Of a stretch of 64,000 nucleotides of DNA, positions 2,357 through 5,408 are shown piece by piece. This DNA comes from Clostridia bacterium (GTDB taxonomy: Bacteria > Bacillota > Clostridia > UBA1212 > DUPL01): positions 129,229 to 193,228 of the forward strand of contig JBMNIW010000001.1 in the NCBI GenBank assembly GCA_050951325.1, given 5' to 3'. The notes beneath the pieces are model-generated. The model was not told the DNA's origin. It searched no databases and saw only the letters and a list, made by a program, of their open reading frames with translations. The translations under genes and the position numbers were made by a program. How positions within the stretch are numbered: position 1 is the first letter of the stretch; each line of letters opens with the position of its first letter.

Positions 2357-3247
2357 CTACCTCTCAAAATCAACATGGCAATTTATAAAAAGATTGGCGA
2401 TATCCTTCATTATCTCCTCGCTTGGTTCTTTCAAATCAGACAAGGAATAATCCTCACACAAAGCAAAATACTTGGAAATTCCCAAATTGTGATATGGCAG
2501 CAAAGAAACCTTCTCAACACCTGTTACACCAAGCATTTTTTCCACTTCCTTAATTACATCGACCCTGTCATTAATTCCCGGTATGATTGGTATCCTTACC
2601 ACCACATCGCATCCCGACTGTACAAGCTTATGCAAATTGCTGCATACAAGCTCATAATCTCCCTTAAGCATATCATACACTTCATTGTTGCCTTTTATGT
2701 CGAAATAAAAGGTGTTGGTAAAGGGAATCACCTTCTCAAAAAGAGAAAACGGCACATTACCAGCCGTATCTATAATCACATGAATATTATTTTTACTTAA
2801 CTTTTCTGCCAATGCGGATACAAAAGACGCCTGAAGCAAAGGCTCTCCACCCGATATTGTAACTCCACCACCGGACTCCTGCATGTATTCATAATCCTTG
2901 TAGAGAGTATCAAACACTTCATCCACGGTCATGTATCTGCCTGAAAGTTTCAAAGCTTTTGTTGTACATGTCTTTTCACACATGCCACAAAAGTCACACT
3001 TGTCAACTTCCACAACATGTTCACCATCCTTAATAGAGTGAACACCTCTTGTGCAGACAATTTCACAAAGCCTACATTTTGCACATAGATTTTTATGAAA
3101 CATCAGCCTTGGCTTTTGGGATATGGTCTCGGGATTATGACACCAGGGGCACAAAAGATTGCACCCCTGCATAAACACAGTTGTCCTTATGCCCGGACCG
3201 TCTCCTAATGAAAAATGCTGTATATTGCTTATCAAACCCTTATCCAT
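2357..3247 (-). CDS. Glycyl-radical-enzyme activating enzyme (radical SAM, PflA-like, with an extra ferredoxin-like Cys cluster).
   Basis: GDGPGIRTTVFMQGCNLLCPWCHN (CxxxCxxC) plus a second cluster CAKCRLCEIVC..CDFCGMCEKTC. Start overlaps the GRE stop (3240-3247). Confidence 0.9.
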   Translation of the reverse strand: MDKGLISNIQHFSLGDGPGIRTTVFMQGCNLLCPWCHNPETISQKPRLMFHKNLCAKCRLCEIVCTRGVHSIKDGEHVVEVDKCDFCGMCEKTCTTKALKLSGRYMTVDEVFDTLYKDYEYMQESGGGVTISGGEPLLQASFVSALAEKLSKNNIHVIIDTAGNVPFSLFEKVIPFTNTFYFDIKGNNEVYDMLKGDYELVCSNLHKLVQSGCDVVVRIPIIPGINDRVDVIKEVEKMLGVTGVEKVSLLPYHNLGISKYFALCEDYSLSDLKEPSEEIMKDIANLFINCHVDFER

Positions 3248-5408
3248 GTTCAGTCCTTCTTAATATGTCAAGCTTTACTTCGTTCGACAAAGAATTGTAG
3301 TATGCACTGAATCCCGACACCCTTACCACCAGATCAGTATAATTCTCAGGATTCTTCATTGCATCAATAAGTATTTCTTTTGATACCGCATTTATCTGAA
3401 TCTCCTGACCGCCATTCTTTAAATACACCTTTATCATGTCAAGCAGTTTCTTCCTTTTCACCGGATCCGTGAACATATTCCTTGTGTACTTCTGATTAAC
3501 AACCGTTCCACAGGACACTTTGGTGTAATCCGGCTTGGTAAGGGACTTTAGAGCCAATGTAGGACCATGCACATCTCTTCCATATACGGGAGAGGCAGCA
3601 TCACTAAGAGGTTCTCCATCCCTTCTTCCATCGGGAGTAGCTGCAATCTCCATACCAGCATATATATTACTAATATTTGCAGCAATGGCAATATAGAAGG
3701 CACCGCCATCATGGGTTTTGTATTTGGAGAATATCTCATAATGCACATTTACGAACCACTTGGCGTATTTGTCTACAAAATCATCATCGTTTCCATATTT
3801 GGGAGCTGACAAAACCTTTGCCAAAACTTCTTCATATCCTTCAAAATTATTCAGTATTGCTTCTTTAAGAAGCGAAAGGTCAATCTCCCTTTTGTTGTAA
3901 ACAAACATCTCAACAGCGGCCAAAGAGTCTGCAAAGGTTCCAATGCCCATGCATGCAGCACCATGGACAGACGGATACAAAGCTCCGCCATCATTTATGT
4001 CAAGACCTCTTTCAATACACGGATAGCAGAAACAGGACAAAAACGGCTGCATGTAGTTGTATGTATTGTATCTTTCATTTTCATTCTTGAACATTCTGAC
4101 ATACATGGCCGCACCGTGTTCCAACTGCTTTCTCAATGCATGAAGAAAATCATCCATGGTCTTCAACTCGGAAACATCCCCCGTTGAAGGCCCAAGGCGC
4201 ACGCCCGTATGCATGCACACCCCATTGTTAAGAACAAGCTCTATATACTTGGGTGAGTTGAATCTTCCATCCGACCAGGGCGGTTGTTTGCCTGGGATGA
4301 AGTTTTCTATGCAGCCTACCATGCAGTAGTTTCTAGCATCCTCTATACTGTAACCATGTCTTAGAAGGGCTGGCACATTCACATCGTCATTCATAAGCGC
4401 TGGATATCCCAAACCCGTTCCAATAACCTTAAGGCATTCATCAAGAAAACCCTCCGGTATGCCGGAATATATTCTGGCAGAAAGATTCGGTCCTGGCACA
4501 TTGCATATCTCCACCGCCTTGAGTATGAGGTAGGAAAGCTCATTGACACCACCCAATCCATTGGGCAAAACTCCGCCAATGGCAATATTCACCACATCAT
4601 CTCCACCAAAATAGCGACATTCGTAGATTTTATACAATGTGCAGCTTAAGAGGTCCAAGGCTTCCTTGTCATTTATCCTGCCTTCTTCAATATCTTTTTT
4701 GTAGTATGGGTAAAGATACTGATCCAGCCTTCCCAAAGCCATTGCATATCTGCCCTCATACAAAAAAGCCGTGTGAACAAACCATACAAGCTGAAGAGCC
4801 TCACGAAAAGTTTCGGGTTTGAAATATGAGACCTTTTTACAGGTTTCGTAAACCTTCATAAGGTTTTCATACTCGCAGCTTCCTTTTTCAAAAGCTTCTG
4901 CTCTTTCCAAAGCCTTGTCCGAATACCCTCTTACCATGTCGGAAAAAGCCTGCATGGAAATCTCGCACGCTTCAAGAAACACTTGCTTCTTTTTATCGCC
5001 TTTATGTACCAGTTTTGATTTCTCTATCTTCTCCAATGTGCCTTTTATACCATCACTCAAAAACGTCTCATAATCAGGTGCATAATGGTCAAAATTCGTA
5101 CCAAAATGCCTCGAGCCGTAATTTGCACACACATTCTGTGCATGCTGAAGCGCCGTATTTGATATGACACTTTCATCTTCAATGGCGCCTCTTATGCTGC
5201 CTGCAATCATGTCATTATCATATACGTGTTTTCTGTGTTTTCTGAACACAGAGGCAACTGCATACGCTCTTGCAATCGGCACCTCGGAATCAAAATGCTC
5301 CGCATAGCCTTCAAACATGTAATAAGGGGTTACCCGCCTTGCAGCCTGCGGCCATTTCTCGTTAATTTCTTTTTTCAACCTCTCAAGAGGCGTGAGCATA
5401 TAAATCAC
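3240..5408 (-). CDS. Glycyl radical enzyme of the PFL2 / glycerol-dehydratase / CutC family, dehydratase-eliminase type, 722 aa.
   Basis: C-terminal glycyl loop VVRVSGFSAYYNSL...RTEHG. Active-site loop NYCMVGCIENF (Cys-x-Glu, as in GCVEP of diol dehydratases). The core LVWFVHTAF..RLDQYLYPYY..NLSARIY..GLGYPALMNDD recalls the Clostridium butyricum glycerol dehydratase. Start is GTG 5408 (GTGA overlap with the ADH stop) or ATG 5399. Confidence 0.9.
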   Translation of the reverse strand: MIYMLTPLERLKKEINEKWPQAARRVTPYYMFEGYAEHFDSEVPIARAYAVASVFRKHRKHVYDNDMIAGSIRGAIEDESVISNTALQHAQNVCANYGSRHFGTNFDHYAPDYETFLSDGIKGTLEKIEKSKLVHKGDKKKQVFLEACEISMQAFSDMVRGYSDKALERAEAFEKGSCEYENLMKVYETCKKVSYFKPETFREALQLVWFVHTAFLYEGRYAMALGRLDQYLYPYYKKDIEEGRINDKEALDLLSCTLYKIYECRYFGGDDVVNIAIGGVLPNGLGGVNELSYLILKAVEICNVPGPNLSARIYSGIPEGFLDECLKVIGTGLGYPALMNDDVNVPALLRHGYSIEDARNYCMVGCIENFIPGKQPPWSDGRFNSPKYIELVLNNGVCMHTGVRLGPSTGDVSELKTMDDFLHALRKQLEHGAAMYVRMFKNENERYNTYNYMQPFLSCFCYPCIERGLDINDGGALYPSVHGAACMGIGTFADSLAAVEMFVYNKREIDLSLLKEAILNNFEGYEEVLAKVLSAPKYGNDDDFVDKYAKWFVNVHYEIFSKYKTHDGGAFYIAIAANISNIYAGMEIAATPDGRRDGEPLSDAASPVYGRDVHGPTLALKSLTKPDYTKVSCGTVVNQKYTRNMFTDPVKRKKLLDMIKVYLKNGGQEIQINAVSKEILIDAMKNPENYTDLVVRVSGFSAYYNSLSNEVKLDILRRTEHG

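Follow-up and report, generated by a model that had tools for sequence, protein, structure and literature searches.

The stretch of 64,000 nucleotides analysed here, referred to as the window, comes from contig JBMNIW010000001.1 of a Clostridia bacterium. Its minus strand carries a gene for the catalytic subunit of a glycyl radical enzyme (GRE) of the PFL2 family, an oxygen-sensitive type of enzyme, together with genes for a GRE-activating enzyme and a zinc-dependent alcohol dehydrogenase (ADH). The GRE gene is real, intact and conserved. By its sequence, the encoded protein is a member of the GRE superfamily, within the CXE eliminase/isomerase class, and lies outside every characterised specificity group. 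The clade it represents, called here the GCIENF family after its active-site loop, is uncharacterised and well delimited; unassigned GRE clades as such are expected.

Gene limits and compact architecture

The open reading frame (ORF) at 3240..5408 on the minus strand encodes 722 aa when read from a GTG at 5408, which is the length given in the original prediction. The true start, judged from sequence features, is most likely the ATG at 5399, and the catalytic subunit then occupies 3240..5399 (-) and has 719 aa. This assignment combines Pfam, NCBIfam, HMMER, AlphaFold2 and Foldseek results with the evidence on the start codon. The ATG lies 5 nt past the ADH stop and has the Shine-Dalgarno-like sequence GGGTGA 5 nt upstream. 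A 100%-identical database protein and most homologues have 716–720 aa, and begin 2–4 residues ahead of a conserved L..LK.E helix. In locus L020 (83% identical) an in-frame stop sits immediately before the equivalent start, which makes the longer form impossible in that locus. Translation is unlikely to begin at the GTG (5408), since its own Shine-Dalgarno-like sequence would overlap the codon and L020 rules out the equivalent extension. Nor can the gene begin still further upstream: a TGA lies in frame 15 codons ahead of the GTG, and the codons between them include no ATG, GTG or TTG. The original prediction likewise held an upstream start to be impossible, but gave the ADH stop as the reason, and that stop is in a different frame from the GRE ORF.

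The translation of 3240..5408 contains all the motif blocks noted beforehand, namely LVWFVHTAF...RLDQYLYPYY, NLSARIY, GLGYPALMNDD, GCIENF, and VRVSGFSAYY. Pfam finds a PFL-like domain (3e-139) and a Gly_radical domain (1.5e-25, residues 602–705). The motif and domain matches are far above chance. Within the glycyl radical domain, at 3255..3290 (-) or residues ~704–715, the protein reads LSNEVKLDILRRTEH. The family consensus (LDxxVQxDILxRTEH) and Clostridium butyricum glycerol dehydratase (GDH) both have Gln at the position of the Lys, which the alignment marks as a single-residue peculiarity of this protein.

The GDH of C. butyricum has 787 aa, and the GRE is therefore 68 residues shorter. The original prediction placed a shortfall of ~65 residues, relative to a ~790-aa GDH, at the N-terminus. 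The difference in length stands, but the loss is mostly internal: only ~9 residues are missing at the extreme N-terminus and ~55 are missing within GDH 82–150, with a further 4 near GDH 194 and 10 at GDH 324–333. In the alignment with GDH, the site of the large deletion falls within residues 74–95 (5115..5180, minus strand), and the ~55 residues are present in both GDH and propanediol dehydratase (PD). It sits between an ELIVGS-type motif and the His164 loop, while the 10-residue gap directly precedes the strand bearing Tyr339. The first three N-terminal helices are kept, and the NCBIfam and Pfam matches begin only at residue ~108. The N-terminal helices form the conserved dimer interface of GREs (PMC13450708). 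The loss of ~55 N-terminal helical residues may give a different quaternary structure.

A truncated or fragmentary gene is ruled out, as more than 120 homologues and a wider superclade have the same compact length. The Ile-Glu-Asn-Phe loop was correctly read as a departure from Val-Glu-Pro, and the GDH loop is GCVEPQ. Compact length and IENF loop are family traits and not the result of truncation or a sequencing artefact; VGCIENF occurs in 119 of 120 homologues.

Family placement and active site

A word-indexed search of 5.8 billion proteins gives more than 120 clusters with 56–100% identity and 97–100% coverage, almost all of 700–725 aa. The glycyl motif R-V-S-G-[F/Y]-S is present in every one of the 120 homologue sequences. 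An exhaustive HMMER search of 1.84 billion representatives of 50%-identity clusters separates three tiers. The first, with identities of 49% or more, is limited to three full-length clusters and several fragments. The second comprises compact relatives of 691–726 aa with 37–42% identity, a GCIE[T/V][F/Y] loop, and the same RVSGFSA loop. The third consists of PFL2 enzymes of the ordinary ~790-aa size, whose identity is at most 40% and whose alignment begins only at residue ~100 of the GRE.

The neighbour-joining tree contains 93 sequences over 751 columns, with 100 bootstrap replicates. The tree and the pocket comparison cover seven references: GDH, two PDs, CutC, HypD, YbiW, and PflD. The sequences of C. 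butyricum GDH, P. distasonis HypD, K. pneumoniae CutC, and E. coli YbiW were taken from annotated plasmids, and those of the two PDs and E. coli PflD were rebuilt from PDB alignments. The GCIENF family and the wider compact superclade are each recovered in 100 of 100 replicates. All seven references lie outside the superclade, with 29–33% identity to the GRE, and GDH and the two PDs form a clade of their own (100% bootstrap) on the opposite side of the tree.

Profile models agree with this separation. The GRE scores 457.5 bits against the NCBIfam PFL2-3 subfamily model TIGR01774, whose cut-off is 678.2, and the match spans only profile positions 157–784, because the N-terminal region is divergent or deleted. 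The compact relatives also fall below this cut-off, and the ordinary ~790-aa relatives pass it. Scores for other models are 420 bits for HypD (cut-off 1100), 399 for CutC (1050), 361 for HpfG (1000), 354 for HpsG (1000), and 134 for PFL (TIGR01255; 994). No NCBIfam equivalog cut-off is reached by the GRE or by its 10 nearest 50%-cluster representatives. The characterised GRE eliminases and isomerases are GD, PD, HpfG, HypD, HpyG, HpzG, CutC, IslA/IseG, HpsG, HplG, YbiW, and PflD according to a June 2026 review, which also states that entire GRE clades are still unvalidated (PMC13450708). These enzymes were compared by sequence and NCBIfam models, except HpfG, for which the NCBIfam model was used alone. 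None of those compared is compact or has GCIENF. The full-text literature, whose coverage leaves out most subscription papers, gave no paper on a compact, GCIENF, or Zn-ADH-linked GRE.

The AlphaFold2 model, built from a 51-sequence family alignment with ~200 invariant columns, has a pLDDT of 90.7 and a pTM of 0.90. Foldseek against the PDB places GDH 1r8w first, followed by the PDs of the 9RC entries and 5I2G (query TM ~0.90), and gives TM values of 0.84–0.91 to more than 40 GRE structures. The Pfam PFL-like match, the model and these TM values agree with the GRE fold, a 10-stranded barrel that has the Cys loop at its centre. GDH 1r8w is also the top PDB match by sequence, with 373 bits.

Pocket positions were mapped by HMMER and MAFFT across 121 family members and the references, and are given in the numbering of the 719-aa protein. 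The Cys loop G362-C363-I364-E365-N366-F367 (4299..4316, minus strand) carries the thiyl-radical Cys and the general-base Glu of the CXE motif, and is kept in 119–121 of the 121 members. This motif is retained by all GRE eliminases and isomerases (PMC13450708). The glycyl radical loop R693-V-S-G696-F-S (3306..3323, minus strand), placed by alignment and the Pfam Gly_radical match, has G696 as the radical site and has Ser and Phe where Ala and Tyr are usual; it fits the RVxG[FWY] pattern of the C-terminal glycyl radical domain of GREs. Five catalytic positions are invariant in all 121 members: Cys363 (GDH Cys433), Glu365 (Glu435), His105 (His164), Asp377 (Asp447), and Gly696 (Gly763). His105 (5085..5087, minus strand) is the proposed general acid for the leaving hydroxyl, and Asp377 (4269..4271, minus strand) aligns with an Asp conserved in GDH, PD, and PflD. 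For GDH, Glu435 is assigned as the base acting on the C1 hydroxyl, and His164 as the acid acting on the departing C2 hydroxyl (PMC13450708). Arg715 corresponds to GDH Arg782, and is invariant in the 22-sequence and 51-sequence family alignments.

The remainder of the pocket differs from that of GDH. Arg217 (4749..4751, minus strand) stands at GDH Gly280 in 120 of the 121 members, and is followed by Tyr218 in place of His281 (111 of 121) and Ala219 in place of Ser282 (all 121). Ala221 for GDH Ser284 and Asn366-Phe367 for Pro436-Gln437 are fixed within the family. GDH Tyr339, which is Phe in PD, becomes Val269 in all or nearly all of the 121 members, at a place where HMMER puts a one-residue gap. 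Ala573-Ala574-Asn575 (3675..3683, minus strand) replaces GDH Tyr640-Pro641-Ser642; Ala573 and Asn575 are both universal in the family, and Ser642 is Val in PD. Arg379 (4263..4265, minus strand) stands at GDH Phe450 and CutC Tyr506 in 119 of 121. Ser282, Tyr640, and an aromatic residue at 339 are kept in GDH and both PDs, and are absent from the GCIENF family.

The active-site residue list of CutC includes Tyr506, Thr334, and Leu698/Ile700 (PMC12451663). Tyr506 aligns with the GDH Phe450 position, Thr334 with His281, and Leu698/Ile700 with Tyr640/Ser642, so the replaced columns line GRE pockets. The pocket positions match none of the characterised enzymes compared. Arg217, Arg379, Ala573, and Asn575 are common to most or all of the compact superclade, whereas Asn366 and Tyr218 set the GCIENF family apart from the rest of it. 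The alignment suggests an intact acid/base apparatus for the elimination of an oxygen leaving group and a different substrate cradle, with fewer bulky aromatic groups and more cationic or hydrogen-bonding ones.

The clade position, the model scores, and the pocket together uphold the earlier suggestion of a distinct subfamily. The altered loop named there as a marker of new specificity holds, but the stronger markers are ones it did not list: the pocket residues, the two arginines, and the always-adjacent Zn-ADH.

Linked genes and window surroundings

The GRE-activating enzyme (2357..3247, minus strand) is a radical SAM protein of 296 aa that scores 286 bits against TIGR02494 (cut-off 174). 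A CX3CX2C motif stands at residue 29, and two ferredoxin-like CX2CX2CX3C motifs follow at residues 55 and 84. The start of the activase and the stop of the GRE overlap by 8 nt. The Zn-dependent medium-chain ADH (5405..6490, minus strand; 361 aa) was identified by Pfam and NCBIfam and by comparison with homologues. Both of its zinc sites are preserved, the catalytic one with Cys/His/Glu ligands and the structural one with four Cys. An invariant Thr occupies the position where NAD-dependent medium-chain dehydrogenases have Asp, an exchange that is a general pointer to NADP(H) use in medium-chain dehydrogenases, and thus suggests use of NADP(H) here. The top PDB match is the uncharacterised structural-genomics protein TM0436 (1vj0, 130 bits). 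Threonine, idonate, xylitol, and galactitol-1-phosphate dehydrogenase were rejected as identities for the ADH, as all model scores are far under the cut-offs. A weak similarity exists to the model for a phosphonate-catabolism-associated ADH (TIGR03366, 144 bits against a cut-off of 328).

Twelve family loci were compared by annotation or ORF scanning and all-against-all BLAST: the window and L002, L003, L009, L012, L013, L020, L021, and L025–L028. An orthologous ADH adjoins the GRE in all 12, and these ADHs are 53–64% identical to one another. The activase is near the GRE in 10 of the 12. The ADH is linked to the GRE more tightly than the activase is, because L027 (6001..9323) and L028 (1452..4716) have the ADH directly after the GRE and no activase nearby. 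On the short contig L001, partial copies of the ADH and the activase flank the GRE. Distant GREs (L004–L008) and the GCIETF relative P0125 have no adjacent ADH.

The only other recurring neighbours in the 12-locus BLAST are AraC-type regulators (5–6 of 12 loci) and esterases, namely a GDSL-type SGNH hydrolase within the cluster in four loci and an SASA-type esterase alongside in two more. The SGNH esterase has no PDB or NCBIfam match. Because an SGNH-fold esterase adjoins in half of the loci, de-esterification may release the substrate. The 12 loci lack microcompartment shell genes, aldehyde dehydrogenases, and a shared transporter, and the transporters vary by locus (SBP, SNF, MFS). Aminotransferase, kinase, aldolase, PTS, and sulfite/phosphite-handling genes are not conserved near the GRE in the compared loci. 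Several of the clusters sit amid housekeeping genes (L21/L27/obg, his, pyr, trmD).

Among more distant relatives, the compact GCIETF protein P0125 (L023 2702..4861 and L024; 42% identity) has no activase alongside. Its neighbours are a UbiD-family decarboxylase, a TauE-type exporter, and a GFO/IDH/MocA oxidoreductase, a context that may indicate a different function within the compact superclade. L004 (8001..10865) comes from a metagenome-assembled genome of a Promethearchaeota (Asgard archaeon), and has a distant PFL2-type GRE (28% identity) next to an activase. According to the June 2026 review, none of the archaeal PFL-like GREs has been assigned a function (PMC13450708).

In the window, the module is part of a string of seven tightly packed minus-strand genes with gaps of -8 to +48 nt. 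In order, these encode a 396-aa signal- or membrane-anchored protein (9217..10407), a 753-aa lipoprotein with a weak GH42-like Pfam match and two F5/8-type-C (discoidin) domains (6907..9168), YjbQ/UPF0047 (6506..6910; TIGR00149, 160 bits), the Zn-ADH, the GRE, the activase, and a 276-aa secreted or anchored protein (1521..2351). The 396-aa and 276-aa proteins have no Pfam or NCBIfam match. None of these three predicted surface proteins recurs beside the GRE in other loci. YjbQ lies 15 nt upstream of the ADH and is overlapped by 4 nt by the preceding gene, and from this spacing it looks co-transcribed with the GRE module in the window. No YjbQ homologue occurs in L001–L008, which were searched for it, and YjbQ does not recur in the 12-locus ORF comparison. 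A scan of 1–11500 for promoters and terminators gives counts equal to those of shuffled sequence, and an Rfam scan of the window gives no matches.

A partial ORF at 1..1524 (-), located two genes downstream of the activase, is cut off by the window start and is homologous to an 812-aa protein encoded just upstream of the L020 GRE cluster. An 848-aa protein at 37804..40350 (+) without a Pfam match is 38% identical to the same L020 protein, and its gene adjoins an AraC-like gene at 36781..37638. Glycan-degradation genes are plentiful in the window, notably at 18074..25759 and 55094..58024. Their products include a 1089-aa protein with DUF2961 and laminin-G domains, a melibiase-like GH, a 3-keto-disaccharide-hydrolase domain protein, another F5/8-type-C protein (30442..32307), a PF12831 FAD oxidoreductase (40328..42043), and a 976-aa sulfatase. 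By this gene content, the host looks like a degrader of complex or sulfated glycans. Positions 28001..30000 have a G+C content of 0.30 compared to ~0.40 elsewhere and may be foreign DNA; the 485-aa ORF at 28509..29966 and the neighbouring 455-aa ORF at 26825..28192 have no Pfam match. An 890-aa sensor protein (13359..16031, minus strand), read by eye from its translation, has an N-terminal membrane/HAMP-PAS region, a GGDEF motif (RVGGDEFVVLM), and an HD-GYP motif (HHEKWDGSGYP).

Proposed reaction and its meaning

Several known systems resemble the GCIENF family in part. C. butyricum DhaB1 (1R8W/1R9D) has ~33% identity over ~700 columns, a TM of 0.90, a Cys-X-Glu loop, and conserved His164, Asp447, and Arg782. 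Its locus likewise combines GRE, activase, and alcohol dehydrogenase (DhaB1, DhaB2, DhaT). In contrast, the partner ADH is iron-containing in C. butyricum and a Zn-dependent medium-chain enzyme in the GCIENF family, and the Gly loop is RVAGYS in GDH and RVSGFS here. The PDs (Roseburia inulinivorans 5I2A/5I2G and the 9RCO series) have a TM of 0.90, 30–31% identity, and the same catalytic His/Glu/Asp/Cys, but they have Ser282, Tyr640, Phe339, and Val642 where the GCIENF family has Ala, Ala, Val, and Asn.

YbiW and PflD, which open the ring of 1,5-anhydrohexitol-6-phosphate, have the CXE loop and the His164 equivalent, and PflD also has Asp447. Their substrates are sugar-sized and anionic, so the scaffold can take such compounds. 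They differ in having 29–30% identity, a position outside the clade, ~770–810 aa, and loci with PTS, aldolase, or phosphatase instead of Zn-ADH. HypD with pyrroline-5-carboxylate (P5C) reductase, and IslA/IseG with sulfoacetaldehyde reductase, are also GRE eliminases paired with a nicotinamide-dependent reductase. The function of HypD was predicted from the co-localised reductase that acts on its product, and the pairing was also a functional clue for IslA/IseG. Both belong to different clades; no P5C reductase gene is near the GRE in the window, and the sulfonate-binding triad of IslA/IseG is absent from the GCIENF family. CutC, with the pocket residues Asp216, Phe395, Thr502, and Tyr506, differs by Phe395 to Val, Thr502 to Ser, and Tyr506 to Arg, and neither cut nor BMC genes accompany the GRE. 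The compact and likewise uncharacterised GCIE[T/V]F relatives (for example P0125 and P0127–P0132) also have a compact length of 691–726 aa, RVSGFSA, Arg at the Arg379 position, Arg or Lys at the R217 position in most, Ala573, Asn575, His105, and Asp377, in a superclade with 100% bootstrap. Their identity to the GRE is 37–42%, and Thr or Val replaces Asn366.

Gene integrity, fold, clade separation, residue conservation, and gene linkage are shown by the analysis; what type of reaction takes place, which way the ADH works, and what kind of substrate is used are inferred. The GRE is, with moderate confidence, the catalytic subunit of an uncharacterised compact (~719 aa) PFL2-type clade that acts as a radical C–O 1,2-eliminase (dehydratase) coupled to carbonyl reduction. 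By homology, the radical-SAM activase would take a hydrogen from Gly696, and the glycyl radical would in turn generate a thiyl radical on Cys363. Cys363 would abstract a hydrogen from the hydroxyl-bearing carbon of the substrate, and Glu365 would deprotonate the hydroxyl on the radical carbon. His105, backed by Asp377, would protonate the vicinal oxygen leaving group, with departure of water or an alkoxide. The resulting alpha-carbonyl radical would regain a hydrogen from Cys363 to give an aldehyde or ketone, which the adjacent ADH would reduce, probably with NADPH. In net terms, a hydroxylated substrate would become a deoxy-alcohol as an electron sink, and the GRE, activase, and ADH would together make up a self-contained redox-sink module with a layout like that of dhaB1-dhaB2-dhaT. 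To judge from the aligned pocket, neither glycerol nor 1,2-propanediol, bound as in GDH or PD, is the substrate, because Ser282, Tyr339, and Tyr640 are lost and Tyr218, Asn366, Phe367, Asn575, and two arginines are gained. The pocket residues point to a larger, polyhydroxylated or anionic compound.

Several points weigh against this assignment. The isomerases YbiW and PflD keep His164, and ring C–O cleavage is thus conceivable. The ADH TauF/SarD acts before IslA, so an ADH may precede its GRE. For an anionic substrate a transporter would be needed, and the compared loci share none. The support consists of sequence, predicted fold, and gene linkage, with substrate and reaction as predictions. 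The pocket map comes from sequence alignment to solved structures, with R217 and R379 as putative pocket-facing residues. The roles of GDH Ser282, Tyr339, Asp447, and Tyr640, including substrate contact, are presumed here, following O'Brien 2004 and LaMattina 2016.

A doubtful alternative is that the ADH acts first, making the hydroxylated substrate from a carbonyl or oxidising a polyol, and that the GRE then cleaves a ring C–O bond, or a C–N, C–S, or C–P bond, next to the carbinol carbon while the arginines hold an anionic group. TauF with IseG, where sulfoacetaldehyde reductase feeds isethionate lyase, is a precedent, and the retention of His164 in YbiW and PflD, the conservation of R217 and of R379 at the CutC Tyr506 position, and the weak TIGR03366 similarity of the ADH all fit this order. 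However, IslA, IseG, and HpsG carry their sulfonate-binding Arg/Gln/Arg triad at other positions. The second Arg position of the triad (GDH Tyr640) is Ala here, and its Gln position is His, as located by numbering offsets and not by alignment. No gene for an aminotransferase, a kinase, an aldolase, a PTS, or sulfite/phosphite handling is conserved nearby, and the retained His-Asp pair fits an oxygen leaving group that needs protonation.

It is rather improbable that the GRE is an isofunctional B12-independent glycerol or 1,2-propanediol dehydratase with a remodelled pocket, and the Zn-ADH a replacement for DhaT or propanol dehydrogenase. Among solved structures, GDH and PD come nearest in sequence and fold, the catalytic His, Glu, Asp, and Cys are the same, the three genes parallel dhaB1-dhaB2-dhaT, and the lack of a conserved transporter fits a small membrane-permeant diol. 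Against this, identity to GDH and PD is 30–33% across a separate clade with 100% bootstrap, and Ser282, Tyr640, and Tyr/Phe339 are replaced across 121 members with two arginines added. Microcompartment genes, which usually accompany PD dehydratases, are missing from the loci.

A pyruvate/2-ketobutyrate formate-lyase, as in the database names 'pyruvate formate lyase family protein' and 'formate C-acetyltransferase' of homologues, is hardly credible with a single Cys then Glu (GCIE) in place of the adjacent Cys-Cys pair of PFL and a TIGR01255 score of 134 bits against 994, and a decaying, non-functional paralogue is no more so, because the intact ORF, its translational coupling to ADH and activase, and ~200 invariant columns in 51 sequences indicate strong purifying selection.

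GRE eliminases have repeatedly proved to be key steps of important anaerobic pathways, such as the formation of trimethylamine from choline and of H2S from isethionate, and the use of hydroxyproline and anhydro-sugars. The GCIENF clade is monophyletic, contains at least 120 sequence clusters, and occurs in digester and gut Clostridia, with a diagnostic VGCIENF loop and a minimal portable three-gene module. A tentative extension of the dehydratase assignment is that the GCIENF family, perhaps the whole compact RVSGFS superclade, acts on a substrate class new to GREs, for instance by dehydrating a hydroxy compound that is anionic or as large as a sugar and is bound through the two arginines, or by cleaving a C–X bond in it. 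The N-terminal loss might then alter quaternary structure, and the Zn-ADH linkage might represent a new two-enzyme anaerobic pathway in glycan-degrading Clostridia. The neighbouring ADH is a built-in reporter that would allow a straightforward coupled NAD(P)H assay. Finding the substrate would add a reaction to the GRE repertoire and would correct the 'pyruvate formate lyase' label on database entries, and the compact architecture would reveal how far the N-terminal helical region of a GRE can be reduced.

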